64,000 bases of DNA from an uncultured Actinomycetota bacterium (GTDB lineage: Bacteria > Actinomycetota > Actinomycetes > Actinomycetales > CAWJMD01), in contig OY970255.1 in the NCBI GenBank assembly GCA_963715595.1, positions 155,796 to 219,795 on the forward strand, given 5' to 3'. The notes under the pieces are model-generated. The model worked only from the letters and a program-made list of their open reading frames with translations. It searched no databases and had not been told where the DNA came from. Made by a program: the position numbers and the translations under genes. This document shows positions 19,751 through 58,760 of the stretch, piece after piece. The stretch's first letter is position 1. Every line of letters begins with the position of its first letter.

Positions 19751-20705
19751 ATGTCCGGACAGGTGCAGGAGGGTCAGGTCCCGCCGTCGACCGGCGAGGG
19801 CCGACGACCCGACTTCCTCATCGTGGGGTCGTTCAAGTCGGGGTCGACCTCGCTCGTCTCCTACCTGAACCAGCACCCCGACGTCTTCCTGCCCTGGCTG
19901 CAGGAGCCGGCCTTCTTCGCCTCGCCGCGGTTCTCGATGGAGCGCGGCGGCGACCCGCGCCCGCAGCGCGCCGCCGAGAGCGCCTACGGCCGGCTGCGCA
20001 CCGAGACGATCGACCAGTACGAGGCGCTGTTCGCCGACGCCCCCGCCGGCGCGGTGCTGCGGGGAGTCCTCGCCGCAGTACATGCGCGAGCCGCGAGGCG
20101 TGCGAGCGGATCGCCGCGCGTGCTGCCCGACGTCAAGCTGCTCGCCGTGCTGCGCCAGCCCGCCAAGCGCGCGTACTCCGACTACTCGATGTTCGTCCGC
20201 GACGGGCTCGAGAAGTCGAGCTTCGCCGAGGCCGTCGCCCGCCCGCCGGGCCGCCGCCCCCCGTTCCACTACGTCGAGACCGGCTTCTACGGCCGCCAGC
20301 TGCGCGCCGTTCTACGAGGCGTTCGGGCGCCGACCAGATCAAGGTGGTGCTGTTCGACGACCTCACCACCCGCACCGCCGAGACCGTCCGCGACGTCTAC
20401 GCCTGGCTCGGCGTCGACGCCGGGTTCGAGCCCGACGTGTCCGACGTGCTCAACGTGGCCGGGCATGCCCGAGCAACGCCCTGGTGGCGGCCACGTACAA
20501 GGTGCGGCGCCGGCTCCAGCCGGTGCTCAAGCCCGTCGTGCCGCAGCAGCTGGGCCGCTCCGCCGACCGGGTCCTGCGCCGCGGCCTGGTCAAGGACGCG
20601 CCCGACGCGGCGCTGATGGCCGAGCACCTCACCGAGCGGTACGCCGACGACATCCGGCTGCTGGCACGGCTCTCGGGTCACGACCTCGACCACTGGCTGG
20701 GGTGA
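19751..20705 (+). CDS. sulfotransferase 1 (class A: carbohydrate-type PSB/PB motifs); at least 4 frameshifts
   Basis: PDFLIVGSFKSGSTSL is the 5'-phosphosulfate-binding loop and KLLAVLRQPAKRAYSDY is the 3'-phosphate-binding motif. The segments are distributed over three frames between about 20060 and 20470 and end at ...HDLDHWLG*. Confidence 0.75.
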
Positions 20706-20799
20706 CCCGCGGTGGACTCGGTCCGCCGGGAGCTGTGGCCCACCGTGGCCGGGCGTCCGGTGCCGCCCTCGGTCGTGCGCGCGGGCAGGGCCACCTTCC

Positions 20800-21640
20800 G
20801 TGGCTTACGGCGCGGCCACCGCCGCGGTCCGGCCGCTGCCGGAGTTCCTCCTGATCGGCGCCAAGCGCGCGGGGACGACCTCGTTCTTCTTCGACCTGCT
20901 GGCCCACCCCGGGGTGCTGCCGCTGTTCCCGTCCGCGCGGCTGCTGCCCAAGCAGCGTGACGGCAAGGGCCCGCACTTCTTCGACAGCGAGTACGCGCGC
21001 GGGCTGCGCTGGTACCGGGGGCACTTCCCGTCCCGGGTCGAGCGCGCCCGGGTGGCCCGCACCGCCGGCCCGGTGCTCACCGGGGAGGCCTCGCCGTACT
21101 ACCTGTACCACCCGCTCGCTCCTGCGCGGGCCGCGACGGTGGTGCCCGACGCCAAGCTGCTCGTGCTGCTGCGCGACCCCGTCGAGCGCACCTTCTCGCA
21201 CTGGCGCGAGCAGGTGCGCAACGGCGTCGAGACGCTCGGCTTCGAGGCCGCGCTCGAGGCCGAGGCCTCGCGGGTCGGCGACGACGAGCAGCGGCTGCGC
21301 AGCGGCGAGCATCACCCGCAGCTTCGCGCACGAGCAGCAGTCGTACGCGGCCCAGAGCGAGTACGACGCCGGGCTGGCCCGCTGGCTCGAGCACTACCCG
21401 CGCGACCAGGTGCACGTGATGGTGAGCGAGGACTACTACCGCGACCCGGCGCAGGTCTGCGACGGCGCGCTGCGCTTCCTCGGCCTCGAGCCGCTGGGGG
21501 AGCGCACGGGCAAGACCCTGAACGCCGCGCCCGGCGCGCGCCTGGAGCCCGCCACCCGCACCATGCTCACCGAGCGCTTCACCCCGTCGGTGCGCCGGGT
21601 CGAGGACCTGTGCGGACGGACGTTCCCGTGGCTGCGGTAG
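20800..21640 (+). CDS. sulfotransferase 2 (class A); 1 frameshift
   Basis: PEFLLIGAKRAGTTSF and KLLVLLRDPVERTFSHW. The frame goes 1>2 near 21305 and the protein ends ...GRTFPWLR*. The start may instead be the GTG at 20712 with another indel. Confidence 0.75.
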
Positions 21641-22701
21641 CCGTACCGGTGCAGCGCGAGGTCGACGACGCCGCGGGTGCGGCCGCGCAGGCGTGCGTCC
21701 GGCTCGGCGTCCCCGGTGCGCCGGCCCGGCGGCTGACGGCCGGCAGCACCAGCGCCGTGTTCGACGTCCCGGACGCCACCGCCGTCCTGAGCGTGCTGCC
21801 GGTCGGCACCACCCCGGCGGCCGCGGCCGCGCGGCTGCGCGCGGCCGCGGTGCTGTCCGACCGGCTGGCGTTCGTGCACCCGCACGAGGGCGGCAGCGAG
21901 CCGCTGGTCACCGCAGCGGGCCGGGTCGTGCTCGCGTGGCACCGCGAGGACGTCCTCGCGTCGCCGGTCGACTGGCGCGGCGTCGGGCGCTCGCTGCGCG
22001 CGCTGCACGAGACCCCGCCCGCCGAGCTCGGCGACCCCCCGCCGCTGCGCCCCACCCCCGAGGTGGTCGACGACCTGCTCGGTCGGCTCGCGCCGTCCGC
22101 GGTCGGCCCCGCCGACCGCGCCGTGCTGCGCGGCGTGGCCCACCGCCTCGACGACGAGGTGCGGGTCCTGGGGGAGCCCGTCGTGCTGGTGCACGGCGAC
22201 CCCCACGGCGAGAACGTGCTCAGCACCGGCCGGGGCCCGGTGCTCTGCGACACCGACGAGATCGGGCTGGCCCCGGCGGGCTGGGACCTCGCCTTCCTCG
22301 TCGACCCGGCCCGCCCCGGACGCCTGGACGCACGCGAGCGGGCCGCGTTCGAGGCCGGGTACGGGGGCCCGCTGCCCGGCGTCGGACCGGTGCGCACCTG
22401 GGCGCGCTCGGCGCACCTGCGGCGCACGCTGCAGGACCTCGAGCGCGCCGGCACCTCGGTGCGCGACCGGTGGTGGGTGCGGGCCCGGCTCGACGCCTGG
22501 ACCCGGATGCTGCAGGACTGGGACCTCGACCTGCAGCCCGTGCTGGGCCAGTCGCGCGGCCGGCACCTCGTCCGGCTGGGACGACGCGTCCGGGTCGCGG
22601 CGCGCAGGAGCGTGCCCGGCGTCGGCGTGCCCGACCGCGGGCTGGACGACCGCGCCGTGCGGCCTCGCACGGTGCAGGACCGAGAGGCGGAGGACCGATG
22701 A
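21628..22701 (+). CDS. aminoglycoside-phosphotransferase-fold (APH/ChoK-like) kinase
   Basis: Intact ORF with the catalytic-loop motif LVHGDPHGENVL and the downstream CDTDEIG (metal-binding Asp). The start is uncertain (GTG at 21628 or 21649). Confidence 0.6.
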   Translation: MAAVAVPVQREVDDAAGAAAQACVRLGVPGAPARRLTAGSTSAVFDVPDATAVLSVLPVGTTPAAAAARLRAAAVLSDRLAFVHPHEGGSEPLVTAAGRVVLAWHREDVLASPVDWRGVGRSLRALHETPPAELGDPPPLRPTPEVVDDLLGRLAPSAVGPADRAVLRGVAHRLDDEVRVLGEPVVLVHGDPHGENVLSTGRGPVLCDTDEIGLAPAGWDLAFLVDPARPGRLDARERAAFEAGYGGPLPGVGPVRTWARSAHLRRTLQDLERAGTSVRDRWWVRARLDAWTRMLQDWDLDLQPVLGQSRGRHLVRLGRRVRVAARRSVPGVGVPDRGLDDRAVRPRTVQDREAEDR

Positions 22702-23993
22702 ACCAGCGCAGGCCGCACGCGGGCGTGCCCCCGACCGGCCGGCGGCTGCGGGTGGTGTACCTCGACCACTGCGCCCGGCTCTCCGGCGGCGAGATCGCGA
22801 TGTCGCGGCTGCTGCCGTGGCTGCGCGACAGCCGTCGACCCGCTCGTGGTGCTCGGCGAGCACGGGACCTGGTCGCCGAGCTGGAGCGCCAGGGCACCGC
22901 CGGTGCTGGTGCTTCCGATGGACGACGCGGCCCGCGACGTCCGCAAGGACACCGTCGCGCCCGGCGGGGTGGGCCTGGTGCCGTTCCTGCACCACCGCGG
23001 TCTACGTCGTGCGGCTGCGCGCGCCTGCTGCGCCGGCTGCGGCCCGACCTGGTGCACACCAACAGCCTCAAGGCGGCGCTGTACGGCGGCGTCGCCGGTC
23101 GGCTCGCCGGCGTGCCGGTGCGTCTGGCACGTGCGCGACCGGATCGCGCCGACTACCTGCCGCGGCCCGCGGTCAGCCTGGTGCGGCTGCTCTCCCGGGT
23201 GCTGCCGCACGCCGTCGTGGCCAACTCCGCACGCGACGCTCGCCACGCTGCCGCCCGAGGTGACCGGCGCGGTCGTGCTCAACCCGGTGGTGCACGAGTC
23301 GGTGCACGCCCCGGTCGACCGTGCGCGCGGAGCGACCCCGCGCTGCGCATCGGCTCGGTGTCGTCGGCCGGCTGGCGCCCTGGAAGGGTCAGCACGTCTT
23401 CCTCGAGGCGTTCGCGCAGGCGTTCGGCGCACGGCGACGCCGAGGCCCGCCTGATCGGCAGTGCGATGTTCGGCGAGGAGGAGTACGAGCAGCGCCTTCA
23501 CGCCCAGGTCGACGCGCTCGGACTCGGCGACCGGGTGGTGTTCCGCGGGCTTCCGCGCCGACGTCTGCGAGCGAGCTGGCCGAGCTCGACGTGCTGGTGC
23601 ACTGCTCGGTCACCGCCCGAGCCGTTCGGCCAGGTCGTCCTGGAGGGCATGGCCGCCGGGCTGCCGGTGATCGCCAGCGACGAGGGCGGCCCGCCCGAGG
23701 TGATCACGCACGGGGTCGACGGCCTGCTGGTGCGGCCCGACGACCCGACCGAGCTGGCGCGCGTGCTCGCCGAGGTGGCGGCCGACCCGCAGCTGCGGCG
23801 GCGGCTCGGTGAGGAGGGTCGGCGCACGGCCGCCCGGCACGGCCCCAAGGACAGCGCGTCCAAGGTGGTGACGATCTACCGCGAGACGCTGGCGAACCGG
23901 CGGCAGGTCTCGGTGGCCGACCTCACCGGCTTCGTCCGCGACCTGATGTCGGCCGGCGAGCGCGACGTCAGGGAGCCAGCACGACCGCGGTGA
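22698..23993 (+). CDS. GT4-family glycosyltransferase; at least 6 frameshifts
   Basis: RLRVVYLDHCARLSGGEIAM...LVHTNSLKAALYGG...WHVRDRI...VANS...EPFGQVVLEGMAAGLPVIASDEGGPPEVITHGVDGLLV, reassembled from all three frames. Confidence 0.75.
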   Translation: MNQRRPHAGVPPTGRRLRVVYLDHCARLSGGEIAMSRLLPWLRDSRRPARGARRARDLVAELERQGTAGAGASDGRRGPRRPQGHRRARRGGPGAVPAPPRSTSCGCARLLRRLRPDLVHTNSLKAALYGGVAGRLAGVPVRLARARPDRADYLPRPAVSLVRLLSRVLPHAVVANSARDARHAAARGDRRGRAQPGGARVGARPGRPCARSDPALRIGSVSSAGWRPGRVSTSSSRRSRRRSAHGDAEARLIGSAMFGEEEYEQRLHAQVDALGLGDRVVFRGLPRRRLRASWPSSTCWCTARSPPEPFGQVVLEGMAAGLPVIASDEGGPPEVITHGVDGLLVRPDDPTELARVLAEVAADPQLRRRLGEEGRRTAARHGPKDSASKVVTIYRETLANRRQVSVADLTGFVRDLMSAGERDVREPARPR

Positions 23994-26649: not shown

Positions 26650-26925
26650 GTGACAAGGGTAGGTGACCTGCGGGGCCGCCCGTGACCGGTCGCGGGCATC
26701 CGCCGCACGACCTCCGGCCGGAGGATGCGCCCTGCGCCGTACGGGTGGCACGGTGACGCACGCACGTGGCCCGACCGCCCGGTTGCCCGTCCGCACCAGC
26801 GAGCACCACCCGGACGGCCCAGCGGTGGTCACGCGAAGCGAGGACGCCGAGGGTCGCGAGACCTACTCTTGACCTCGGGTCGACCGTGGAGCCGGCCCGT
26901 CGCGAGCAGGGACGAGGAGACGGTT

Positions 26926-29841: not shown

Positions 29842-29846
29842 CGCCT

Positions 29847-29896
29847 GACGACGACGCCCCGTGGGTCCCGATCGGGAACCACGGGGCGTCGTCGTC
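29847..29896 (+). terminator. long hairpin after the propeller gene
   Basis: gacgacgacgccccgtgg (29847-29864) pairs with ccacggggcgtcgtcgtc (29879-29896), an 18-bp perfect stem. The loop contains the palindrome tcccgatcggga. Confidence 0.6.
29867..29876. promoter_or_regulatory. CCCGATCGGG palindrome, site 1
   Basis: Perfect 10-nt palindrome (12 nt as tcccgatcggga) in non-coding DNA, 160 nt upstream of the GH-FN3 start codon. See findings. Confidence 0.3.
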
Positions 29897-34823: not shown

Positions 34824-36276
34824 GTCGCCTCCTCCTCGGTGCCGGTGCGAGCGGGGACGGGGTCCTGCTCGGGGGTGGACGGGACCCGGCGAGCGGGCGG
34901 ACGTGCCCGACGACGCCGACGGCGAGCCACAGCAGGGCGCCGTAGACCGACTTGTAGGTGCTGGTGAACAGCAGGGCGACGGTGAGCGCGGTGAGCACCG
35001 CGGCCGCCCCGGGGTCGGCGAGGCCCCGCCGGGCCAGCAGCACGGCCGAGCCGGCGGCCACGACGGTCGCGACCAGCAGCAGCCCGCCCGCGGGCAGCCC
35101 GAGGGCGACGACCGACTCGAACACGCCGCTGTCGACGCTCTGCAGGGCCGGCTGCAACCCGGCCTCGAGCTGGGTGGCGAGCCCGGTGGCGCCCAGGCCG
35201 CGGCCCCACGGGTCGACGACGACCTCGGTGAAGAGCTGGGCCTGCAGGTCGAGCCGCTCCTGCAGGCTGTAGTCCTGGGCGCCCGCCTCGAGCGACGCGG
35301 TCACCCGCTCGGTGACGGAGCCCAGCACGGGGCCGCCGAACAGCAGCAGCGCGGCCGTGCCCGGCACCGCGACGGCCAGCAGCCGGGTGAGGCGCACCCG
35401 CCCGGCGAGCACCAGGACGGCGAGGGCGACCAGGTGGCAGATCCAGGCTGCACGCACCAGCGACAGGCCCAGGGCGAGGTAGCCGAGCACGAGCAGGGGC
35501 ACCTGCACGACCAGCCGGGTGCGCAGCGTGCTCGCCAGGTGCAGCAGCAGCAGGGCCGACAGCGTGTGCGCGTAGGGGCCGGCGGTGTTGAGGGTGCCGA
35601 AGACCCGCACCTCCTGGGCCTCGGCCCGCCCGACCGAGTTGATCCCGGACTGCTCGATCCACAGCGCGTCCCACGGCGGGAGCACGAGGAACTGCAGCAG
35701 GCCGTACCCGGCCAGGACCGGGACGGCCCACCGGGCCAGCCGCGGCAGGACGCGCGCGACGGCCGACCCGTCGTGGGTGAGCACGACGTACCCGAGCACG
35801 AACGGCGCGACCAGCTCGACGGCCCCCGCGGCCACCGGCAGCAGGCCCCACTGCGGCAGGCCGACGACCGACCCGTAGAGCACCGCGAGCAGCAGCGCGC
35901 CCGCCATCGCCGCCGCGGTCCGGGTGGCGCGCGAGCCGCGCCCGCGCAGCAGCACGGCCGCCGCCGCGAGCGAGCCCGCCACCGGGGCCAGGAGCACGGG
36001 GCTGACCTCGTGGTAGGTGCTCAGCCAGTCGACGACGCGGCGGACGAACGGCGAGAGCAGCCACAGCCACAGCACCAGCGCGACGACGTCGGTGGTGCGC
36101 GAGCGCAGCGCCAGCAGCAAGGCGTAGACCCCGGCGGCCGCCGGCGCGGCGTACCCGGCCAGCCGCGCGTCCAGGACGGCGATCGCCACCGTGGCGGCGC
36201 AGATGATCAGGGCGCCGAGGGTGCCTCGCCACAGCGACGGCTCCTCCTCGGCGCTCAGCTCGCCGGGCTGCACCAC
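34799..36276 (-). CDS. O-antigen ligase / Wzy-like polymerase family membrane protein; probable frameshift in the C-terminal tail
   Basis: About 10-12 TM segments with a large loop GINSVGRAEAQEVRVFGTLNTAGPYAHTL (Wzy_C-like). The GTG GTG start at 36276/36273 overlaps the upstream sulfotransferase stop. As given, the frame runs on into the GT4 gene; a 1-nt shift near 34880 gives the stop at 34799. Confidence 0.65.
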
Positions 36277-37196
36277 AGGCCGACCAGGTCGCGACCCACG
36301 AGCCGGCCGAGCGCGTCGATCTCGGGCCGCATCTGCGCGAGCAGGCGCGCGCGCAGCTCGGGGTCCATCCGCGCGCCGGCGACCGGGGCCGCGTTCAGGC
36401 GGTAGAGCAGCTTCCAGGCGCCGTCGCGCCACACGGCGGTGCGCAGGCGGGCCGGCACGGCCCGGCGGACCAGCGCGCGTCCGGGCGGGTCGCGCAGCAC
36501 GTCACGCAGCACCGCGCTGCGCGAGCGGCTGCGCTGCTTCTCGACCGTCGTGCCCGGCCGGTGGGTGTCGTCGAGATCGAGGAAGCGCAGCAGGGCGGCG
36601 TGGGTGCCCTCCGGGTCGTCGCGCAGGTCGTCGAAGACCACGACGTGGGTGCGCTCGGGCCCGAACACGTCCAGGAAGCGGGCGACCTGCGGGCTCAGGG
36701 TCGCGGCGTCGACGTAGCCCACGCCGGGCGGGAACGGCGCGCGGGGCGGGCGCCGGCCCGGCTCGCCGTCGCGCTCGAGCGCCTCGGCGAAGTCCTCGAG
36801 GTCCTCCTCGCCGGTGAACAGCCGCATGCCGTGCAGCGAGAACATCATGTCGACGGGGTTGCGGACCGCGACCACCACGCGCGCCTGCGGCGAGAAGGAC
36901 GCGATCTCCTGCGCGGCGGTCGCGGAGCGCAGGTACCAGGCCGACGCCTCCAGCAGCCGCGCCTCCTCGCGCGCGCCCGAGAACAGGTCGAGGTACTCCT
37001 GCTCGGAGCGGTCCGACAGCGGCAGGTCGCGGCCGAAGAAGTTGGGCTCCTTCAGCGGGCAGGCGAACACGTCGGGGTGCGCGGCGAGCCGGGAGTACAG
37101 CGTGGTCGTGCCGCACTTGGCCGCGCCGACGACGAAGGTGTCGGGTCGGCGCGCTGCGGCGGCCCGGACGGCCCGCCCCGAGGTCACGGGCTCCAC
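36255..37196 (-). CDS. sulfotransferase 3 (class A)
   Basis: Intact from the GTG at 37196: DTFVVGAAKCGTTTLY (PSB loop), RVVVAVRNPVDMMFSLH (PB motif). Confidence 0.8.
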   Translation of the reverse strand: MEPVTSGRAVRAAAARRPDTFVVGAAKCGTTTLYSRLAAHPDVFACPLKEPNFFGRDLPLSDRSEQEYLDLFSGAREEARLLEASAWYLRSATAAQEIASFSPQARVVVAVRNPVDMMFSLHGMRLFTGEEDLEDFAEALERDGEPGRRPPRAPFPPGVGYVDAATLSPQVARFLDVFGPERTHVVVFDDLRDDPEGTHAALLRFLDLDDTHRPGTTVEKQRSRSRSAVLRDVLRDPPGRALVRRAVPARLRTAVWRDGAWKLLYRLNAAPVAGARMDPELRARLLAQMRPEIDALGRLVGRDLVGLWCSPAS

Positions 37197-49383: not shown

Positions 49384-49479
49384 TCGTCCGACCTGACCGC
49401 AGCGCGCGCCGCGACGCGACGGTGCACCTCGAGGGCGGCCGCGTGGTCGGCCCGGACCCGTCCGCGCCCCCGCCGTAGG

Positions 49480-51492
49480 GTGTCGGCCGTGAGCGTCCCG
49501 GAGCACGACGACCACCGTCCGCTGCGGATCGCGATGGTGGGGCAGAAGGGCCTCCCGGCCACCTGGGGCGGCATCGAGCACCACGTCGAGCAGGTGGGGC
49601 GGCGGCTCGCCGAGCGCGGCCACGAGGTCACGGTCTACTGCCGCGGCACCTACGGCGAGCAGATCCCGGACGAGCACCTCGGCATGCGGCTGCGCCGCAC
49701 CTCGACCCTCGGCACCAAGAGCCTGGACGCCATCGTGCACAGCGCGACGTCCTCGCTCGCCGCGGTCGCCGCGCGCGCCGACGTGGTGCACTACCACGCG
49801 ATCGGGCCGGGCCTGGTGGCCCCGCTGCCGCGGTACCTGACGTCGGCGGGCGTCGTGCTCACCGTGCACGGGCTCGACCACGCCCGCGACAAGTGGGGCC
49901 GGGCCGGACGCGCCGCGCTCGGCGCCGCCCACCTGATGAGTCCCCGCGTGCCGCACGAGCTGGTGGTGGTCTCGCAGGCGCTGCAGCAGCACTACCGCAG
50001 CCGGTTCGGCCGCGAGACCGTGCACGTGCCCAACGGCGTCACGCTGCGCGACCTGCCGGCCGACCCGACCGCGGTGCTCGACCGGCTCGGGCTGCGCGCC
50101 GGCGGCTACGCCCTGTTCGTCGGACGGCTGGTGCCCGAGAAGCGACCCGACCTGCTGCTGCGCGCGTTCGCCCGGGTCCCCACCGACAAGCGGCTGGTGC
50201 TGGCCGGCGACTCCTCGTTCACCGACGACTACGTGGCCGGGCTGACCGCGGCGACCTCGCGCGACCCGCGGGTGGTGATGGCCGGGTTCACCGTCGGCGA
50301 CGACCTCGCGGCGCTGTACGCGGGCAGCGGCGCGGTCGTGCAGCCGTCCTCGCTGGAGGGGTTGCCGCTGACCCTGCTGGAGGCGATCGGGCACGACGCC
50401 CCGGTGGTGGCGTCCGACATCGCCCCGCACGTCGAGGTGCTCGGCGCGGGCTCGCCGCGCCACCTGCTGTTCCCGGTCGACGACGAGGACGCCCTGGTCG
50501 CGGCGCTCACCCGCGTGCTCGCCGACCCGGGCAGCGCGGCGGGCGCCGACGCCCGACGCTGCGCGACGACGTGCTCGCCCGGTACAGCTGGGACGCGGCC
50601 ACGACCCGCCTCGAGGACGTCTACCGCCGGGTGGCCGGGCGGGCGGCCGGCCAGGAGCGACGCGAGCGCCTCGTGCACGGGGCCCGCAGCCGCTCCCGGT
50701 CGGTGGTGCGCGCGGCGCGCCGGCGCGCACGCCGTCCGGACGAGCGGCCCCTGCCCGACTTCCTGGTCGTCGGCGCGATGCGCAGCGGCACCACCTCGCT
50801 GTACGCCGACCTGGCGCGCCACCCGCAGGTGCGTGCCCCGCTCGCCAAGGAGCTGCACTACTTCACGCTGCACCACGACCGCGGCACCGACTGGTACCGG
50901 CGCTGCTTCCCGCTGCTGGCCGAGGGCCAGCAGACCTTCGAGGCCACGCCGTACTACCTCTACGACCCGCAGGTGCCCGCCCGGGTGGCGGCGACGCTGC
51001 CGGACGCCCGCTTCGTGGTGGTGCTGCGCGATCCCGTCGACCGGGCCGTCTCGCACTACCTGCACACCCGCCGCACCGGTGAGGAGCCGCTCGCGCTCGC
51101 CGAGGCGCTGGCCGCCGAGCCCGAGCGCCTCGCCTGCGGCGGCGGACGCGTCCCCCCACCGGCGGCACGAGGCGGTGCGCCGGTACTCCTACCTGGCGCG
51201 CAGCCGGTACGGCGAGCAGCTGGCGCGCTGGTTCGACCACGTCGACCGCGACCGGGTGCTGGTGCTGCGCACCGAGGACCTCGCGCAGCGCCCGCAGGAG
51301 GTGCTCGACCGCGTCCACGAGCACGTCGGTCTGCCCGCGTGGCGCGCGGACGGTTTCACCCGGCACACCCGCCGGCGCGAGGTGGCCGGCACCGACGTCC
51401 CGGACGACCTGGTGGCCGCGCTGCGCGCCGAGCTCGAGCCGGACGTGGCGCGGCTGACCTCGCTGCTCGGGTGGGAGCGCGGCTGGTGGTGA
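49480..51492 (+). CDS. GT4 glycosyltransferase fused in-frame to sulfotransferase 4 (class A); 2 frameshifts
   Basis: The GT4 part is RIAMVGQKGLPATWGGIEHHVE...FVGRLVPEKR...EGLPLTLLEAIGHDAPVVASD...LARYSWDAATTRLEDVYRRV. An Arg-rich linker of about 40 aa follows, then PDFLVVGAMRSGTTSL and RFVVVLRDPVDRAVSHY. There is no stop in any of the three frames between 50580 and 50770. Shifts lie near 50555 and 51140. Confidence 0.7.
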   Translation: MSAVSVPEHDDHRPLRIAMVGQKGLPATWGGIEHHVEQVGRRLAERGHEVTVYCRGTYGEQIPDEHLGMRLRRTSTLGTKSLDAIVHSATSSLAAVAARADVVHYHAIGPGLVAPLPRYLTSAGVVLTVHGLDHARDKWGRAGRAALGAAHLMSPRVPHELVVVSQALQQHYRSRFGRETVHVPNGVTLRDLPADPTAVLDRLGLRAGGYALFVGRLVPEKRPDLLLRAFARVPTDKRLVLAGDSSFTDDYVAGLTAATSRDPRVVMAGFTVGDDLAALYAGSGAVVQPSSLEGLPLTLLEAIGHDAPVVASDIAPHVEVLGAGSPRHLLFPVDDEDALVAALTRVLADPGSAAGADARRCATTCSPGTAGTRPRPASRTSTAGWPGGRPARSDASASCTGPAAAPGRWCARRAGAHAVRTSGPCPTSWSSARCAAAPPRCTPTWRATRRCVPRSPRSCTTSRCTTTAAPTGTGAASRCWPRASRPSRPRRTTSTTRRCPPGWRRRCRTPASWWCCAIPSTGPSRTTCTPAAPVRSRSRSPRRWPPSPSASPAAADASPHRRHEAVRRYSYLARSRYGEQLARWFDHVDRDRVLVLRTEDLAQRPQEVLDRVHEHVGLPAWRADGFTRHTRRREVAGTDVPDDLVAALRAELEPDVARLTSLLGWERGWW

Positions 51493-51499
51493 CGGGCGG

Positions 51500-52420
51500 T
51501 CAGGGGACGGCGTAGCCCCGGCGGCGCAGCGCGGGCCCGATCGCGGCCTCGACGTCGGCCACCTGCGCGGGCGTGAGCTCGCGGCGGTAGGCGTCGACCC
51601 GCCCGGCGCCCAGGCTGTGGCGCGCCACCCCCGCCTCGAACCGCGGGTCGGGGTCGAGCCCGGCGAGGTCGAGCAGGCCGCGCACCGCGGCGGCGGGGTC
51701 GGCGAGCAGGTCCTCGTAGCGCAGGTCGAGCCAGGCCCCGGCCGGGTGGCGCTCGCGCGCCTGCTCGGCCGCCTCGACCAGCAGCTGCCAGCCGAGCGCC
51801 GCCAGCACCGGGAACGAGCGGCCCGACCGCTCCCACACCTGCTGCAGGGCAGGCGGCAACGGGCCGAAGAGCCACCGGTCGGGGCCCTGCCAGCCGTCCC
51901 ACCAGCCCATCTGGAGCCACGAGCTGGCGACCGCGCGGCCGTCGCGCACCACCTCGACCACCCGCAGGTCGGGCAGGGCGGCCCGCAGGAAACCCGTCCG
52001 GGGCCACCCGGTCACGTGCAGCACGAGCACGTCGGCGCGCTGGGCCTCGAGCCGCTGCTCGACGAAGTCGCGCAGCCGGCGCTCGACGTGCGGGGTCATG
52101 TCCTCGGCGACCAGGTCGCGGACGGGGCGCGACCACCCGGCGACGACGTGCCGGTCGAGCAGGTCGTACGCCTCGGACGGGCGGACGCCGATCCGCCCGC
52201 GCTGCAGGACCCCGACCGCCTCGGACCAGGCCCGCAGGGCGGGCGGACGCGGTGCGGTGGCGTGCCGGTACAGGGGACCGTTCCAGCGGCCGCGCAGCCC
52301 GAGGCGGGAGAGCCTGTCGTCCAGGCCGGAGACGAACGCGGTGCGGGGGTGGCGCGCGAGCAGCTCGGTGACGACCGTCGTGCCGCTGCGTCCGGTGCCC
52401 GCCACGACGACCACCCTCAC
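51500..52420 (-). CDS. sulfotransferase 5 (class B: G-x-x-RSGT[TS] P-loop type)
   Basis: Intact from the GTG at 52420 (GTGA overlap with the upstream stop): VRVVVVAGTGRSGTTVV...VEVVRDGRAVASSW...LRYEDLLADP. Confidence 0.75.
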   Translation of the reverse strand: MRVVVVAGTGRSGTTVVTELLARHPRTAFVSGLDDRLSRLGLRGRWNGPLYRHATAPRPPALRAWSEAVGVLQRGRIGVRPSEAYDLLDRHVVAGWSRPVRDLVAEDMTPHVERRLRDFVEQRLEAQRADVLVLHVTGWPRTGFLRAALPDLRVVEVVRDGRAVASSWLQMGWWDGWQGPDRWLFGPLPPALQQVWERSGRSFPVLAALGWQLLVEAAEQARERHPAGAWLDLRYEDLLADPAAAVRGLLDLAGLDPDPRFEAGVARHSLGAGRVDAYRRELTPAQVADVEAAIGPALRRRGYAVP

Positions 52421-53508
52421 CCCGGTGGCCCCGCAGGTCCCCGGGCGGCGACGGCGGCGCGCTCCTCGACGGCGGCCAGGTCGAGGGTCGCGAGCTCGGC
52501 GTCGACCGGGTCGGGGGCCGCCACCACGGCGCGGCGGGCCCGGCGGGAGGCCGCGCGCCGGTCGGTCAGGCCGAGGACGGCGCGGGTGGGGGCGGTCATG
52601 GCCTGCACCAGCGCGCAGCGCCCGGCGCTCAGCCCGCCGCGCCACTCGCCGTCGTCACGGACCTCGACACGACCGGTCACGTGCCGCGAGGGGTTGCCGG
52701 CGACGGCGTGGGTGGTGGAGATGCGCAGCGTCGAGCGGTCGACGAAGGGCAGCGACCGCGCCGGCGCGCCGAGCCGCTCGAGCACCGGAGCCAACGCGGT
52801 CTCGGGGTCGCGCACGAGGTCCTCGTACCGCAGCCGCAGGTGCCGGTCGTCGCGCGGGCGCCAGGCCACGGCGGCCACCAGGTTCCACAGCAGCCACAGC
52901 GTGGCGCTCTTCAGCACCGGCTGGCGGTCCATCGGCGGGTCGTCGTCGCGCTGGCGGCTCGCCCGCGTCCGCAGCCACGAGTAGGCGGCGGCACGGGGGT
53001 CGCGCACCAGGTGCAGCACGGTGACCTCGACGCCGGGCAGCTCCTGCAGCAGCAGCCCGTACAGCGGCAGCTTCGAGGAGTCGACGACGACGTCGGCGCC
53101 GCTGCGCGCGCGCACCGCGCGGTACAGGTCGACCAGGAGCGCGTCGTCGGGGTGCGAGGGCAGCGGCGTGAGCCCGACCAGGGAGCGCAGCAGCACCTGG
53201 GGGACGCGACGGGCCCGGGTGCGGTGCCACAGCCGGGCGGCCACCCCCCGGGCCACGGGCCGCACCGGGCCGTCGGGGACGACGGCCGACATCACCGACC
53301 TCCACTCCGGGCAGGTGCTGAACGCGTGCCCGCAGCCGCAGCGCTCGTCCTGCACGGCTCCGCGCTGCCACAGGAAGCGCAGCTCGCCGGCGGACACGAC
53401 GCCGGGGACCTGGCCGAGGATGGTGGCGAGCAGCGTGCTGCCGCTGCGTCCGGTGCCCGCGACGAACAGGACGCGCACGGGGTCTCGGTGCGGTGCGTGC
53501 TCAGCCAC
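52417..53508 (-). CDS. sulfotransferase 6 (class B)
   Basis: Intact: VRVLFVAGTGRSGSTLL...CGCGHAFSTCPEW...VLHLVRDPRAAAYSW...LRYEDLVRDP. The start GTG at 53508 overlaps the upstream GT4 stop by 8 nt. Confidence 0.75.
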   Translation of the reverse strand: MAEHAPHRDPVRVLFVAGTGRSGSTLLATILGQVPGVVSAGELRFLWQRGAVQDERCGCGHAFSTCPEWRSVMSAVVPDGPVRPVARGVAARLWHRTRARRVPQVLLRSLVGLTPLPSHPDDALLVDLYRAVRARSGADVVVDSSKLPLYGLLLQELPGVEVTVLHLVRDPRAAAYSWLRTRASRQRDDDPPMDRQPVLKSATLWLLWNLVAAVAWRPRDDRHLRLRYEDLVRDPETALAPVLERLGAPARSLPFVDRSTLRISTTHAVAGNPSRHVTGRVEVRDDGEWRGGLSAGRCALVQAMTAPTRAVLGLTDRRAASRRARRAVVAAPDPVDAELATLDLAAVEERAAVAARGPAGPPG

Positions 53509-54730
53509 GCCCCACACCTTGGTAGAGGTCGGACAAGGTGTCCAGGTGCCGTCGGGCGGAGAAGTCCTCCAGGACTCGTGCGCAGCCCGTTCGGCCCATG
53601 GCCGTCACCCGTCCGGGGTCGGCCGAGCAGCGACCCCAGCGCCGCGGCCAGGGCGGCCGGGTCGTCGGGCTCGACGAGCAGCCCGTCGACCCCGTCGTCG
53701 ACCAGCTCGGGCAGCCCGCCCATCCGGGTCGCGACCACGGGCACCCCGAGCGCGTACGACTCCAGCACGGTCATCGGCTGGTTCTCGTACCAGCGGGACG
53801 GGACGAGGGTCGCGACGGCGCCGCGCAGCAGGTCGGCCACGCCCTCGCGGGTGAGCCGGCCGAGGAAGCGCACCCGTCCCGGGGCCACCTGCGTCGGCCA
53901 GCCGCTCGAGCGCGGCGCGCTCGGGCCCGTCGCCCGCCACGTCGAGGTGGGCGCCGGGCAGCATCGCGACCGCGCGGACAGCGGTGTCGACCCCCTTCTC
54001 GGCCGACAGCCGCCCGGCGACGGCGAACCGGCCCGGCACCGGCTCGCGGGGCGCCGGCGGACGGGGGCGGGTCGACGAAGTGCGGGACGACGTGGAGGCG
54101 GCCGTGGTCGACCCCGGCGTCGCGGACCACTCCGGCGAGGAACCGGCTGGGGCTCACCAGGGCGTCGACGCGGCCCCAGGCGCCGGTGAGCCGGTGCAGG
54201 CCGGACTCGACCGACAGCAGCGCGCTCGCCGGCAGGGAGCCGCCCTTGCAGCGCCGGCGGGCGGCCTGCAGCGCCCCGTGGTCGACGCACGCGCGGCAGG
54301 GCCGTCCGTGGTCCAGCATCTGGTAGCTGGGGCACGCGACCTTGTAGTCGTGCAGGGTGAGCACGGCGGGCACGCCGCCGCGCACCGAGGGCGCGAGCAC
54401 CGAGGGGGAGAGCTGGTGGTACACGTTGTGGAAGTGCACGGCGTCCGGACCGAACCGGCGCACGGCCTGCGCCAGGCGCGACGCCGCCTCGCGTGACCAG
54501 ACCATGCGGGCGGCGGCACGCAGGCCGGCCGCGCCGGACGGGGCAGGATCGAGCTCGACGAAGGAGGCGAACGTGTCGGCCAGAGGAAGGTCCGGGGGGT
54601 CCTCGGGGTGGCGCATGCCCCACACCTGCACCTCGTGCCCGTCGCGGCGCTGCAGGTCGGCGAGGTCGAGCAGGTACGACTCGGCACCGCCGCGGCGGTG
54701 CACGAACTTGTTGACGTGCAGGATCCGCAC
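53501..54730 (-). CDS. GT4-family glycosyltransferase; at least 3 frameshifts
   Basis: VRILHVNKFVHRRGGAESY...HFHNVYHQLSPSV...FAVAGRLSAEKGVD...SRWYENQPMTVLESYALGVPVVATRMGGLPELVDDGVDGLLV...LDTLSDLYQGVGRG*, reassembled from three frames. Confidence 0.75.
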
Positions 54731-54762
54731 CCGCGCAGTCCACCACACCGGCTCGCCCGCCC

Positions 54763-55698
54763 GTGCGGGCGGTCGCGGTGAGCGAGCAGCCCCGGGGGGC
54801 GTTGGCGTACGGGTGGCGCCGGGTGCGCCGGCACGTGCGCTGGGGCCGTGCCGAGGGCTGGGGGCGGCTGGTCGAGGAGGACCGGCTCGACCCGCGCGAG
54901 CGGGCGCGCACGGCCCTGGCCAAGCACCGCTGGCGCCGCCGGCACGGCGTCGCGCCGGGCACGGCGCGACCGGTCTACGTCGTCGGCCTGCAGCGCTCCG
55001 GCACGAACATGCTGACCCGCGGGCTCGACGGCGCGCCCGAGGTCGAGGTGCGGAACGAGAACGACCGCACCCTGTTCCGCCGGTTCCGGCTGCGCGAGGA
55101 CGACGTGCTCGTGCGCACGGTGCGGCGCAGCCGGCACCGCGTCGTCCTGGTCAAGCCGCTGTGCGACTCGCACCAGGTCGACCGGCTGCTCGACCTGCCG
55201 GACCTCCCGGGCGGACGCGCCCTGTGGGCGTTCCGCGAGCCGCACGCGCGGGCGCGCTCGGAGGTGGCGCGGTTCGGACCGGCGAACCTGCGTGCGCTGC
55301 AGGCGATCGCGGCCGGCGACACCGCCGGACGCTGGCAGGCCGCCCGGCTCGACGACGACGCCGTCGAGGAGGTGCGTCGGCTGCGGCCCGAGCGGCTCAC
55401 GCCGTACGAGGGCGCGCTCGCGTTCTGGGCCGTGCGCAACGCGCTGTGGTTCGACCTCGGTCTCGACGCCCGCGAGGACTGCCTGCTGGTCGACTACGAC
55501 GCGGTCGTCGCCGACCCCGCCCCCGCCGCCGAGCGCCTGTGCGCCTTCGTCGGCCTGCCCGCCCGCTCCGACCTGCTCGGCCACGTCGTGCCGCGCAGCA
55601 CCCACCACGACGACCACCCGGAGGTCGATCCGCTCGTGCTCGCCCTGACCGACCGCACCTGGGAGCGGCTGCGCGCCGCGGCGAGGACGGCGTCGTGA
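54763..55698 (+). CDS. sulfotransferase 7 (class B)
   Basis: Intact ORF: PVYVVGLQRSGTNMLT...RVVLVKPLCDSH...LVDYDAVVADP. Confidence 0.65.
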   Translation: MRAVAVSEQPRGALAYGWRRVRRHVRWGRAEGWGRLVEEDRLDPRERARTALAKHRWRRRHGVAPGTARPVYVVGLQRSGTNMLTRGLDGAPEVEVRNENDRTLFRRFRLREDDVLVRTVRRSRHRVVLVKPLCDSHQVDRLLDLPDLPGGRALWAFREPHARARSEVARFGPANLRALQAIAAGDTAGRWQAARLDDDAVEEVRRLRPERLTPYEGALAFWAVRNALWFDLGLDAREDCLLVDYDAVVADPAPAAERLCAFVGLPARSDLLGHVVPRSTHHDDHPEVDPLVLALTDRTWERLRAAARTAS

Positions 55699-57124
55699 GC
55701 GCCGCCGGCCGCCGCTGGAGGGTCGCCGCCGTCGGGCTCGTCGTCGCGGCGCTCGCCCTCGCCGGCTGCACCGACCCCGACGACGACCCGGCGCCCGACC
55801 CCACGGCCGCACCCTCTTTCACCGACGGCGAGGACGGCGGCGACGACGAGCCGCCCGCGGCGTTCGAGGGCGGCGTGCTCGGCGCCAAGTGGGACCAGGC
55901 GCGCACCGACGCGTTCGACCCCTACCTGCGCGAGCTCGGCACCGGCCCGACGTTCTCCGAGGTCGTGTGGTGCGAGATCGAGCCCACGCAGGGCGAGCGC
56001 GACTGGACCTCGCTCGACGCCTTCGTCGAGCGCGCCGACGAGCTGGCCGGCACGCTGCTGCTGAAGATCCGCGTGGGCCAGTGCTGGACGACGGGCCAGG
56101 CGCCGCAGCAGGTGCGCGGCAACAAGACCGAGTCGGGCGTCCCGCGCGACACCGACGAGTACCGCGACTTCGTCACCGAGCTGGTGACGCGCTACTCGGC
56201 GCAGGGCGTCAGCCGCTACGCCGTCGAGAACGAGGTGAACTCGCCGAGCTTCTGGGCCGGCACGCCGCAGGAGTACCGCGACCTCGTCGAGGTCGCGGCC
56301 GACGCGATCCGCGCCGCCGACCCCGCCGCGCTGGTGCTCGACTCCGGGCTGAGCAGCGTCTCGTACGGCGCCGGTGCGGCACGGCTCCTGCTCGACGAGG
56401 GACGCGACGACGACGCCGTGGCGGCGTGGAACACCTACTACGAGCGGCGGATCGGGACGCGCGGACGCAACATCGTCGAGGCCGCCGACGCCGAGGAGCT
56501 CGAGGCGCTGCTCGAGCGCGAGCAGGCGGCGCGCAACATCGAGCACCTCGAGCTCGGCGTCCGCGCTGGCGGACGACGGCGTGGTCGACGTCCGCCAGGT
56601 GCACTTCTACGAGACCTGGCGCGGCGTGCCCGTCCTGTTCGAGCTGCTGCGGGCCACCACTCCCGACGACGTGCCGCTCGAGCTGTGGGAGGTCGGCCTG
56701 TTCCGGCGGGGGCAGGAGGTACCGATCGACCAGGCGGCCGACGAGACGGTGCAGACCAGCGCGGCGCTGCTCGCGCAGGGCGCGGCGCTCGTGGTCTGGC
56801 TCCCGCTGGCGTTCAACCCGTCCGGGCGCAACCCGGACGAGCCGCGGACGGGCCTGCTGGAGCCCCAGGGCGAGGTGCGTCCCACCGGCGAGCGCTACGC
56901 CGAGCTCGCCGCGGCGGCGCGCGACGCCGTCCCGGTCGCGGTCGCCACCGACGACGTCGTCGGCGTCGTGCCTGGAGAGGCCGGAGGGGTCGACGGCCTT
57001 CGTGTGGTCGCTCGACGGCGACGTCGAGGCCCAGAACGCCGGCAGCGAGGTGCGCCTCACGACGGCACCCTCGCGGGTCGAGGTGGAGGGTTCGGTCGAG
57101 GACTTCGTGGCCGGCCTGCCGTGA
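55695..57124 (+). CDS. lipoprotein, glycoside-hydrolase-like TIM-barrel (clan GH-A-type ENE motif); 2 frameshifts
   Basis: The GTG overlaps the previous stop (GTGA). The lipobox is VVAALALAGC. EIEPTQGERDWTSLDAFVERA...VSRYAVENEVNSPSFW. Shifts lie near 56560 and 56975, and the protein ends ...SVEDFVAGLP*. Confidence 0.55.
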
Positions 57125-57955
57125 CGCACCACCTGGTGCTCGTCGGCGGGCTGCACCGCAGCGGCACCAGCCCGCTCGCCCGGGCGCTGGGCAGCCACCC
57201 GCAGGTGAGCGCGCTGACCGGCACCGGGGTGGTCGAGGACGAGGGGCAGCACCTGCAGGACGTGTACCCGGTCGCCAAGACCTACGGCGGCTCAGGGCGT
57301 TTCGCTCTCGACCCCCGGTCGCACCTCACCGAGGCGTCGCCGCTCGCGACGCCCGACGCGGGGGCCCGGCTGCGGGCGGCCTGGGACCCGTTCTGGGACC
57401 TGTCCCGGGGCTGGCTGGTCGAGAAGTCGCCACCGAACCTGGTGATGGGCCGGTTCCTGCAGCACGTGCTCCCCGGTCAGCTCGCTCGTCGTCGTGGTGC
57501 GCCACCCGGTCGTGGTCGCGCTGTCGACGAAGAAGTGGCGTGGCGTGCGCACTCTGCGGCCCGGCAAGTACGAGACGCTCGCCTCGCTGGTCGGCCACTG
57601 GGTGCGCGCGCACCAGGTGCTGCGCGACGACCTGGCGCACCTCGCGCGCGTGCACGTCGTGCACTACGAGCACCTGCTCGCCGACCCGCGCGCCGAGCTC
57701 GACGCCCTCGGCGGCTTCCTCGGGCTGCCCGGGCCGGTGCCCGACGACGCCTGCGTCGCGGCCACAGCGACCGGTACGAGCGGGCGTGGTCGCGGCTGGG
57801 GAACCGGCTGCACCCGCTGCACGCGGCGGCGTCGTGCGGTGCTGAGCCGGTACGCCGACGAGGTCGCCGACCTCGGGTACGACCTCGCCGACGTCGCGGC
57901 CCCGCCGCGACGGGTGCTCGCGGCACGGGCCGGGCACCCGGGCCCTCAGCGGTAG
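57121..57955 (+). CDS. sulfotransferase 8 (class B); about 3 frameshifts
   Basis: The GTG overlaps the previous stop (GTGA). HHLVLVGGLHRSGTSPLA...LVEKSPPNLV...VVVVRHPVVVALS...VVHYEHLLADP. Confidence 0.7.
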
Positions 57956-58760
57956 CCGAGCTCGCGCAGCAGCCGCCGGCTGGTCCACCACACCAGGACG
58001 CGACCGAGCGGGTCGAGCTCGCGGCGGTGCGCCCCGGCACGCCCGGCGTAGACGGCGGAGTCGGTGCCCTCGGCGCGGCGCCGGTCGCGGGCCTGGGCGT
58101 GGTAGCGCGGCGGCACGTCGTGCTGGTGCTCGTCGATGCGCAGCATCGCGGGGTCGAACTGCTCGCCGAGGAAGTCGGTGAGCCGGCGCACGGTGGCCTC
58201 CTGGTCGCAGACCAGGTCCTCGTAGCGCACCTCGTGGAACTGGTTCTGCGGCAGCGCACTCCTGCGCCGCCCGCACCGCCCGCACGTACCGCGGCCACTT
58301 CACCGCGGCCTTGAGGGCCGGCACGTAGCCGAACCGCTTGCGGTGGCTCACGACCACGTCGCGGCCGTCGCGCAGCACGTGCACGACCTGCGCGTCGGGG
58401 AAGAGCGGCGAGCACGAAGTCGAGCTGGAGGGCGTACCGCGGCGTCTTGTCGACCCAGCGGGCCTTGCCGCGGCGGGCGGCGTAGTCGGCGTGCACCCCG
58501 GCGAACATGCCCGCGATCCGCGCGAGCCACTCCTCGCGGCTGAACCCGAACCGCTCCAGCGCGCTCCCAGTCCTCGTGCACGACCCGGCGCAGGTCGACT
58601 CGAGGAAGCGGGTCTCGGGCCCGCAGCTGATCCGCGAGTGCGAGTCGAGCAGGAGCCGCACCAGGGTGGTGCCGGAGCGCTGGCAGCCGACGACGAAGAC
58701 CGGCGGCCCGCCCGGCTCCTCGACGGACCGGCGACCGGTCGGGCCGGGGTCGGCGGTCAC
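57946..58760 (-). CDS. sulfotransferase 9 (class B); at least 4 frameshifts
   Basis: PPVFVVGCQRSGTTLVRLLL...KARWVDKTPRYAL...VVHVLRDGRDVVVSH...VRYEDLVCDQEATVRRLTDFLG...LLRELGYR*. It converges on and overlaps the end of sulfotransferase 8 by 10 nt. Confidence 0.7.

Follow-up and report, generated by a model that had tools for sequence, protein, structure and literature searches.

The window analyzed here, a 64,000-nucleotide stretch of contig OY970255.1 from an uncultured Actinomycetota bacterium, carries a large set of sulfotransferase (ST) genes whose products are predicted to use 3'-phosphoadenosine 5'-phosphosulfate (PAPS). Its G+C content is 69-78% throughout (~75% overall), and for this reason long spurious open reading frames (ORFs) occur in all frames. 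The coding frame was followed by third-position G+C (GC3) in a frame plot and with a Viterbi model of seven states, and gene models were stitched from the frame pieces before searching Pfam. All six frames were scanned for the 5'-phosphosulfate-binding (PSB) loop, with the pattern G-x-x-K/R-S/A/C-G-T/S-T/S after strand 1, which gave nine matches in the high-GC3 frame and no other convincing one. An initial annotation had divided the STs into two motif classes, A and B, in two islands. This spatial split was confirmed, with A1, A2 and A3 in island 1 and A4 together with B1 to B5 in island 2. GT4 denotes a family 4 glycosyltransferase (GT).

19751..20705, + strand: ST A1, class A; PSB loop FLIVGSFKSGSTS at 19826; full Sulfotransfer_3/1 match of the stitched model
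~20712..21640, + strand: ST A2, class A; PSB loop at 20857; stitched Pfam match; frame switches at ~20800 and ~21310
36255..37187, - strand: ST A3, class A, intact; PSB loop at 37127; Pfam match; start taken from the source's own gene call
49480..51492, + strand: GT4-ST A4 fusion, ST domain ~50700-51492; PSB loop at 50772; frame switches at ~50555 and ~51080-51160
51500..52420, - strand: ST B1, intact; PSB loop at 52399; Pfam Sulfotransfer_3 4.6e-18; GTG start at 52420, not 52645
52417..53517, - strand: ST B2, intact; PSB loop at 53457; Pfam match; start at 53478 in the source's own gene call
54778..55698, + strand: ST B3, intact; PSB loop at 54985; Pfam Sulfotransfer_3 7e-13
57121..57955, + strand: ST B4; PSB loop at 57145; stitched Sulfotransfer_3 3e-19; frame switches at ~57471, ~57758 and ~57837
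57946..58760, - strand: ST B5, similar to the tyrosylprotein sulfotransferases (TPSTs); PSB loop at 58688; stitched Sulfotransfer_3 5e-37; frame switches at ~58255 and ~58406

Before stitching, all nine ORFs matched Sulfotransfer_3, several of them over half the domain. After stitching, Sulfotransfer_3 and Sulfotransfer_1 spanned the full domain in all nine, and each exceeded the gathering score of PF13469 and/or PF00685. When every six-frame ORF of the window was scanned with hidden Markov models (HMMs) and with phmmer, the same nine loci were matched and nothing else. The PSB loop and the 3'-phosphate motif, a strand Arg followed by a Ser, were both found in 9/9 STs. From these data we conclude that the window holds exactly nine genes of the PAPS-type ST superfamily, with ST activity predicted for their products. 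The nine places given in the initial annotation were thus correct; its ORF limits for A1, A2, the ORF at 49480, B1, B4 and B5 were not.

Three related assemblies were located and used to examine the gene models. L001 is an 80.7-kb Logan contig with DNA 87% identical to positions 49412-63013 of the window, and L002 and L085, both from a second run, cover parts of island 1. All nine STs are intact in these assemblies (A1, 314 aa; A2, 308; A3, 372; GT4-A4, 667; B1, 301; B2, 365; B3, 306; B4, 273; B5, 270), and the stitched window proteins align full length to the orthologs with 79-92% identity. A1 contains at least three frame breaks (a compensated pair at ~20054-20115, then ~20313 and ~20465) and is 85% identical to its intact L085 ortholog over 314 aa. 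The earlier ORF at 20800-22701 consists of the remainder of A2 and a separate gene for a kinase of the aminoglycoside phosphotransferase (APH) fold. The stitched GT4-A4 protein matches Glycos_transf_1/Glyco_transf_4 as well as Sulfotransfer_1/3, and tblastn with the L001 protein runs through window frames 1/3/1; the single 667-aa fusion in L001 rules out two genes at this position. B1 and B3 are 92% and 91% identical to their L001 orthologs; among the nine STs, B3 diverges the most. B4 is 82% identical to the intact 273-aa protein. The GTG start of B1 overlaps the stop codon of B2 (GTGA, 52417-52420), which suggests translational coupling within a GT4-B2-B1 operon. Over the window as a whole, the pattern of frame switches fits an unpolished assembly.

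Class A is one coherent family of predicted enzymes resembling heparan-sulfate 3-O- and N-sulfotransferases (3-OST and NDST). A1 to A4 matched one another by BLASTP with E values of 1e-10 to 1e-43 (A2 and A4 share 39% identity), and A1 and A2 are tied to the class by profile-profile scores of 183-449. When the PDB was searched, A3 matched 3RNL (1e-32) and 3-OST/NDST (1e-6 to 1e-4), and the ST domain of A4 matched 3-OST-3A1 (1e-23) and NDST (1e-18). In the alignment of A4 with 3-OST-3, KELHYF was paired with aEpHfF, and the RDPVxRAxSHY motif was aligned too. An AlphaFold model of A3 (predicted local distance difference test score, pLDDT, 90.3) had 3RNL, 3-OST-1/3/5 and NDST1 as its nearest solved folds. 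The Glu of the E-x-H-F/Y-F segment that follows the PSB loop is catalytic in 3-OST structures. This segment reads QEPAFF in A1, KEPNFF in A3 and KELHYF in A4; in A2 it reads GKGPHFF, with the Glu absent and the His kept. The likeness of class A to carbohydrate sulfotransferases, proposed in the initial annotation, is borne out by the A4 and A3 matches and by the fold neighbours. STs of the A2 type abound in actinomycetes: >1700 matches cover 99% of the stitched A2 query (best 81%). A3-type STs are far rarer (56 matches in a word-indexed search).

The predicted class B enzymes are five mutually distant orthogroups in the part of the superfamily that contains TPST, the CurM ST domain and NoeE. 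The best BLASTP values within the class were 3e-9 (B1-B5), 2e-7 (B1-B2) and 5e-6 (B4-B5), with B3 at ~1e-3, and values between classes A and B begin at 5e-4. In PDB sequence searches the B5 ortholog matched TPST1/2 (5e-13), followed by the CurM and OLS ST domains and M. tuberculosis Stf1. Arg78, Glu99 and Lys158 are the catalytic residues of TPST2, and their equivalents in B5 were aligned (GCQRSGTT, CGPETR and DKTP). B4 matched TPST2 at 3e-5, and B2 matched the OLS and CurM ST domains only. The PDB gave no sequence match below E = 0.18 for B1 or below E = 0.016 for B3, and neither ST significantly matches a TPST sequence. B5 (9e-14) and B4 also weakly match NoeE, a Nod-factor fucose sulfotransferase. 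The AF2 (AlphaFold2) model of B2 (pLDDT 89.2) had CurM ST, OLS ST and TPST1/2 as its nearest folds; Stf9 followed at 2e-4, the 3-OSTs at ~1e-3 and Stf0 (1TEX) in 34th place at E 1.4e-3. Nearly all of the 50 PDB neighbours listed for the A3 and B2 models are sulfotransferases, the exception being retinol dehydratase, a protein of the same fold that binds 3'-phosphoadenosine 5'-phosphate (PAP). Fold was tested on these two models, and that of the other seven STs is inferred from profiles. The cofactor motifs of the STs align with those of 3-OST-3 and TPST2.

The B2 family (52417-53517, - strand) has three invariant cysteines, Cys47/49/56 (C-x-C-x6-C), and an invariant Trp59, numbered as residues of the 353-aa gene call. 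The cysteines sit in an insert after the PSB loop and were not seen in the other STs of the window; the trio could be a metal site.

Profile-profile comparison of the orthogroups (hhalign) gave scores of 183-449 within class A, 47-119 within class B and 22-90 across the classes. The cross-class pairs B4-A4 (90) and B5-A3 (88) exceed several B-B pairs. All-against-all BLASTP and hhalign therefore rule out class B as one family, and the single class of the initial annotation could not be kept. The motifs proposed to define the classes separate them approximately and not cleanly. The PSB loops of A2 (GAKRAGTT) and A4 (GAMRSGTT) have Arg where the class A motif wants Lys, and that of A4 conforms to the class B pattern; the B2 loop reads RSGS; and the RYE[DH]L..DP block of class B is altered in B3 (VDYDAV), B4 (VHYEHL) and B5 (..CDQ). 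Both classes contain the R-x-P...S motif. As a YED(L/M)..(D/N)P block is typical of cytosolic sulfotransferases (SULTs), the block is a feature of the superfamily. We conclude that the two classes represent two deeply separated branches within a single PAPS-dependent superfamily and have their cofactor motifs in common.

An affinity of class B with Stf0/TPST-like enzymes had also been considered. The TPST half of this idea held, as class B is closer to TPST and CurM-ST than to 3-OST. The Stf0 half was rejected: there was no match to PF09037 (Stf0) at E<=0.01 in the raw ORFs or at E<=0.001 in the stitched models, the Stf0 structure 1TEX was not matched in six PDB sequence searches, and it ranked 34th by fold. 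All profile and fold neighbours are STs, which rules out a P-loop family other than sulfotransferases, and class B retains its assignment as STs. The word paralogs, understood as products of local duplication, does not apply. Class B proteins score 250-440 bits against orthologs from other families of Actinomycetota, compared to 18-45 bits or no match among themselves, and they are therefore old, separately conserved genes and not local duplicates. Two acceptor chemistries, as had been suggested, is an undercount, since the pattern of conservation suggests as many as nine separate specificities. The two proposed recruitment events are better described as two different gene cassettes; island 2 itself holds a class A domain.

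Island 2 has the order GT4-A4, B1, B2, GT4, B3, g24, B4, B5, Wzz2, Wzx2, Wzy2, and its genes other than the STs are as follows.

53504..54755, - strand: GT4 glycosyltransferase g23, frame-broken; Pfam on the stitched model
55695..57124, + strand: g24, lipoprotein similar to glycoside hydrolase family 39 (GH39) and PslG, frame-broken; ortholog profile against the PDB; LAGC lipobox
58762-59811, - strand: Wzz2; Pfam Wzz (first gene of the block 58762..62989)
59927-61469, - strand: Wzx2; Pfam Polysacc_synt
61471-62880, - strand: Wzy2; Pfam Wzy_C

Wzz2, Wzx2 and Wzy2 are intact in L001, as is the g23 ortholog (408 aa), and 12-13 hydrophobic segments were found in Wzx and Wzy. Conservation of the island was examined by scanning one genome per species with the B2-family alignment. 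This identified 357 relatives, of which the best 80 were taken with 10-kb flanks and annotated by comparing six-frame ORFs with the window and L001 proteins. None of the loci exceeded 55% identity to window B2. At least four ST genes lay within 10 kb of the B2 homolog in 72/80 loci, and g24, GT4, B2 and B3 occurred together in 71/80. The core order is g24, B5, B3, GT4, B2, B1. A class A ST (fused to GT4 in the window), B4, Wzx/Wzy/Wzz and cysQDN are often added to this core. The commonest ST sets were A4-like+B1+B2+B3+B5 (31 loci) and B1+B2+B3+B5 (16 loci). GT4 adjoins B2 in 79/82 loci, g24 is present in 76/82 and B1 orthologs in 63/82; B2 homologs numbered 1042. The order (Wzy-Wzz-Wzx-A)-g24-B5-B3-GT4-B2-B1 is fixed in Micromonospora, Phytohabitans and Actinoplanes, and B4 is added in Intrasporangiaceae, Dermatophilaceae and Nocardioidaceae. 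In those B4-bearing families the cassette is flanked by pth-WbaP-cysQDN-GT4 and TauE-cysC-mfd (L004, L008, L015 and L084); its site between pth and mfd is the place that island 1 occupies in the window. Among 65 full-length loci, Wzx, Wzy or Wzz lies beside the core in 49 and cysN in 14. As judged from its gene content across these loci, island 2 is an old, widely conserved actinobacterial cassette.

The B3 family is small: a search of 1.84 billion representatives at E<=1e-30 gave 96 clusters. The family includes natural fusions, namely a B2-B3 double ST, B3-GT4 and Bac_transf-B3 (P0307, P0310, P0355 and P0332). Together with GT4-A4, these fusions tie the predicted STs to the assembly of lipid-linked glycans. 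The g24 product has no Pfam match. Its ortholog profile gave weak, partial matches in the PDB to 8FA4 (3e-6), GH39 xylosidases (1.5e-5) and PslG (5e-3), and hhalign detected no relation to the g13/g14/g16 family (probability 5%). None of the nine STs falls in a curated NCBIfam family, and the same holds for g24, the APH-like kinase and g14. In L001, 4.4 kb of extra DNA (L001 positions 14043-18536) lies between the GT4-ST fusion and mazG and is absent from the window; it encodes two ATPases of ABC transporters and a protein of 988 aa that has no Pfam match.

The remainder of the window contains island 1 and the genes of PAPS metabolism. Neighbour order was established by Pfam on frame-corrected genes, or by eye where stated.

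Block 1: glmU, prs, Rrf2-like gene (by eye), TauE, ribosomal protein L25 gene, pth
Block 2: WbaP-like Bac_transf, DUF4012, cysQ, cysD, cysN
Block 3: Wzx1, secreted beta-helix + Ig/fn3 proteins, GT4a, A1, A2, APH-like kinase, GT4b
Block 4: protein resembling polysaccharide co-polymerases (PCP-like; by eye), DUF5122/Ig protein, three secreted paralogs without Pfam match
Blocks 5-6: GT, Wzy1, A3, TauE, cysC; then mfd (by eye), lhgO, mazG-rlaP
Last gene, after island 2: eno (by eye)
6445..8551, + strand: WbaP-like priming phosphoglycosyl transferase, heavily frame-broken; Bac_transf 7e-54 when stitched
11044-11955, + strand: cysQ (PAP phosphatase)
11949-12863, + strand: cysD
~12861-14116, + strand: cysN
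14102-15637, + strand: Wzx1 flippase; Pfam
15603-18670, + strand: secreted beta-helix + Ig/fn3; Pfam
18671-19747, + strand: GT4a; Pfam
21636..22701, + strand: APH-like kinase, a separate gene downstream of A2
22697-23993, + strand: GT4b, many frame breaks; Pfam
23968-26862, - strand: PCP-like protein fused or adjacent to a secreted domain without Pfam match; by eye
33744-34827, - strand: Glycos_transf_1 GT; Pfam; separate and intact in L002
34887-36275, - strand: Wzy1; Pfam; separate and intact in L002
39829-40797, - strand: TauE/SafE-family permease; Pfam TauE 4e-41
40807-42382, - strand: cysC, adenosine 5'-phosphosulfate (APS) kinase; Pfam APS_kinase 9e-57

Island 1 is a predicted second Wzx/Wzy locus, with a GT4-A1-A2-kinase-GT4 module. 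This module is intact in L085 and is found at 67% identity in the metagenomic contig L086, together with Wzx, Wzz and beta-helix/Ig proteins; the Wzx1, beta-helix/Ig and GT4a neighbours recur in both. The window copy of the kinase has no Pfam match, PF01636 (APH) is matched by its orthologs in L085 and L086, and the ST-ST-APH-GT4 order is kept. A3 adjoins Wzy1, as A-type STs adjoin Wzy in Terrabacter loci. Pfam identified Inositol_P in CysQ, PAPS_reduct in CysD and GTP_EFTU with C-terminal domains in CysN. In relatives the WbaP-like transferase adjoins cysQDN. In total the glycan machinery of the window comprises Bac_transf, five standalone GT4-type GTs and the GT4 domain of the fusion, two Wzx (Polysacc_synt), two Wzy (Wzy_C) and Wzz. 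The PAPS-related genes are cysQ, cysD, cysN, cysC and two TauE, and the same linkage of STs to PAPS genes is seen in relatives: cysQDN is linked to the cassette in 12-14 loci, and the TauE-CysC-Mfd order recurs beside it in L015. The cysC product has an N-terminal extension of ~340 residues without a Pfam match, and there is an apparent frame break at ~42014-42138.

We consider it probable that the window encodes two Wzx/Wzy-type cell-surface polysaccharide loci flanking mfd, in which cytoplasmic STs sulfate lipid-linked units before flipping and polymerization. All nine STs are devoid of signal peptides, membrane segments and other hydrophobic segments, and a lipoprotein signal is present in g24. 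Both loci would share one WbaP-like priming transferase and one local PAPS supply, in which CysDN would form APS, CysC would convert it to PAPS, CysQ would remove the by-product PAP, and the two TauE-family permeases may move sulfur oxyanions. The STs would act in the cytoplasm on undecaprenyl-diphosphate-linked sugars while the repeat unit is being assembled by the GT4 enzymes, and each would add sulfate at its own position. The sulfated unit would then be flipped by Wzx, polymerized by Wzy and controlled in length by Wzz, and secreted hydrolase-like proteins, including g24, may trim the polymer. As island 2 has six different STs and two GT4 domains, an unusually densely sulfated unit is predicted.

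Several points weigh against this reading. The sulfated polysaccharide is a predicted product, and in actinomycetes such polymers have not been demonstrated and await verification (PMC13390465). The PCP-like protein of island 1 is without profile support, as 23968-26862 has no Pfam match. B4 and B5 resemble protein-tyrosine STs. In 16/65 full-length loci the core stands without Wzx, Wzy or Wzz within 10 kb, so it may act on a glycan produced elsewhere, or its own product may be a smaller sulfated glycoconjugate. A credible if unlikely account along these lines is that the core g24-B5-B3-GT4-B2-B1 is a decoration module, outside any Wzx/Wzy repeat-unit pathway, that glycosylates and multiply sulfates a pre-existing wall glycopolymer, lipoglycan or glycolipid. 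Besides the loci just mentioned, one of which (L083) has unrelated flanking genes, this would fit the single GT4 for four STs in the core, the weak NoeE matches of B4 and B5, and the relationship of B5 and B2 to mycobacterial Stf1 and Stf9, with mycobacterial sulfoglycolipids and rhizobial Nod-factor sulfation as comparable cases. However, 49 of the 65 loci have Wzx, Wzy or Wzz alongside in fixed order, a Bac_transf-B3 fusion exists, and the core includes a PslG/GH39-like lipoprotein of a kind typical of exopolysaccharide operons. That the TPST-like enzymes of class B instead sulfate tyrosines of proteins or peptides, such as the nearby secreted Ig/fn3 proteins, appears extremely unlikely. The B5 match to TPST1/2 with all three catalytic equivalents, the B4 match, the TPSTs among the fold neighbours of B2, the secreted Ig/fn3 and DUF5122 proteins that accompany the cassette in several lineages, and the precedent of RaxST of Xanthomonas are consistent with it. 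The genomic context nevertheless argues for sugars as the probable acceptors: B4 and B5 also match the carbohydrate sulfotransferase NoeE, B2- and B3-type domains occur in fusions with one another, with GT4 and with a phosphoglycosyl transferase, and the enzymes are invariably linked to GT4 and a glycoside hydrolase but to secreted proteins in 15/82 loci; no conserved small peptide gene was seen.

The remaining objection to two functional polysaccharide loci concerns the state of the genes, because five of the nine STs (A1, A2, A4, B4 and B5) and several partner genes are frame-broken in the sequence as given. Across the window the coding frame switches dozens of times inside plainly single genes. 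The most likely explanation is that these breaks are indel errors of the assembly, since essential genes are likewise broken and related assemblies carry all nine STs intact. Switches were seen in glmU (452-1949), the L25 gene (4759-5462), pth (5463-6100), the WbaP-like priming transferase (6445-8551), GT4b (22697-23993) and wzx (59927-61470), and the Pfam domains of glmU, the L25 gene, pth and the priming transferase are complete only once stitched. If the frameshifts were real, the loci would be decaying and the five STs and several GT/Wzx genes would be pseudogenes in this strain. Apart from the switches themselves, this would accord with our failure to find a read set of the source as a check; no public run held >13% of the words of a 2-kb window test stretch. 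We regard decay as highly unlikely. When proteins of the relatives were aligned by tblastn, the frame changes coincided with the switches of the GC3 tracker, identity was 82-98% before and after each break, and GC3 remained above 0.9. Some breaks are close compensating pairs, as in A1, where ortholog alignment revealed a 20-residue out-of-frame patch between two indels, and every gene is intact in the related assemblies. The breaks in single genes make ORF limits in the raw sequence unreliable, those of the initial annotation included. ORFs of this window should not be taken at face value, and annotation of it needs frame correction.

PAPS and ST genes within a polysaccharide cluster have been described as a hallmark of sulfated polysaccharide synthesis (PMC11641403), and Wzx/Wzy clusters with two STs are those of synechan (PMC8205485) and Actinoplanes wps-1 (PMC13390465). 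A close likeness is to wps-1 of Actinoplanes missouriensis, for which a sulfated polysaccharide was proposed in 2026 (PMC13390465). That actinomycete locus combines Wzx, Wzy and Wzz with two STs from different families (one being of the heparan-sulfate type), a kinase-like protein and a glycoside hydrolase; by description, WpsH-WpsI resembles the A2-kinase pair of island 1. The window differs in having nine STs rather than two, two Wzx/Wzy sets, the GT4-ST fusion, and cysQDN, cysC and TauE within the locus. The xss cluster of Synechocystis is likewise Wzx/Wzy-dependent, with cytoplasmic STs of distinct subfamilies that modify the repeat unit, and its gene numbers match the sugar:sulfate stoichiometry of synechan (PMC8205485). 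Island 2 is the inverse of that cluster, with two GT4 domains and six STs compared to eight GTs and two STs; it is also from another phylum, lacks the XssQRS regulator and has PAPS genes inside the locus. The capsule loci of Vibrio sp. KMM 8419 and Cobetia, whose sulfated products are proven, also combine cysNDC with STs (PMC11641403, PMC11766843). They differ in ABC-transporter export, in having 1-3 STs of other families, and in the lack of a conserved multi-ST cassette.

At the level of the enzymes, class A shares with 3-OST, NDST and 3RNL the fold, the PSB loop and the RDPxxRxxSxY 3'-phosphate motif, and A1, A3 and A4 also share the Glu-x-His-Phe/Tyr-Phe segment of 3-OST/NDST, which in A2 is without its Glu. 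A3 is 16-28% identical to these proteins over the fold-search alignments, and A4 differs by its GT4 fusion. The class A acceptor cannot be heparan sulfate as such. Class B shares the G-x-x-R-S-G-T/S loop with TPST1/2, CurM/OLS, Stf1/Stf9 and NoeE, which are its nearest relatives by sequence (B5, B4 and B2) or by fold (B2). Its context is glycan assembly, in contrast to the polyketide or peptide modification of TPST/CurM-type enzymes. Like the GH39-like PslG of the Pseudomonas psl operon, g24 is predicted to be exported and hydrolase-like and is encoded inside a biosynthetic cassette. The similarity between the two is weak (1e-5 to 5e-3, over partial regions), and g24 is the lipoprotein of a Gram-positive bacterium.

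It is well established that animals, algae, cyanobacteria and a few marine Gram-negatives make sulfated polysaccharides. Those of actinomycetes have so far been a 2026 hypothesis from a two-ST cluster, and the window reveals a far richer system. Literature searches found no described actinobacterial multi-ST cassette or GT-ST fusion. The system is unusual in the number of STs, the ratio of STs to GTs, the GT-ST fusion and the breadth of its conservation. We tentatively propose, as a possibility short of an even chance, that the cassette, with its 4-6 mutually distant STs, 1-2 GT4s, PslG-like hydrolase, Wzx/Wzy/Wzz and PAPS supply, makes a polysulfated surface glycan of heparin-like charge, with the TPST-like enzymes working on lipid-linked sugars. 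If this is true, Gram-positive bacteria would have a first sulfated polysaccharide pathway, which would also serve as a source of regiospecific carbohydrate sulfotransferases. A densely sulfated glycan would imply a panel of soluble, regiospecific bacterial STs, and a GT-ST fusion, of use for heparin-like materials. The cassette is found in Micromonospora, Actinoplanes, Phytohabitans, Intrasporangiaceae and Nocardioidaceae as well as the organism of the window, and its conservation over several families of Actinomycetota makes the question directly testable in tractable genera such as Micromonospora or Actinoplanes. The Prs protein of the window belongs to a 90%-identity cluster represented by a protein of Angustibacter speluncae (Kineosporiaceae), and the bacterium is probably related to that family.

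The window also contains two direct internal duplications. One pair (29931-31355 and 37263-38687) is 1.4 kb long with 96% identity, and the other (28969-29896 and 31348-32284) is 0.94 kb long with 89%. Four secreted paralogs, 30-43% identical to one another, form a family: 30036-32222 (+), 32310-33599 (-), 37341-39725 (+) and ~23968-25300 (-). None has a Pfam or NCBIfam match, and the motifs EGxNEW and TE[AS]GYH suggest that they may be TIM-barrel glycosidases. The gene at 30036-32222 is a mosaic, its first half being a twin of 37341-39725 and its last third a twin of the end of 26725-29841. The gene at 37341-39725 contains a Pro/Thr-rich repeat linker of TPPPT units (~38750-38950, + strand), which misled the GC3 tracker into a false minus-strand segment at 38582-38941. 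Wzx1 contains a DDAK(T/A) repeat at ~14860-14930 (+ strand). Lastly, the gene at 47547-49478 (+ strand) encodes a MazG pyrophosphohydrolase fused to an RlaP-type nucleotidyltransferase, and the same fusion is found in L001 (609 aa).

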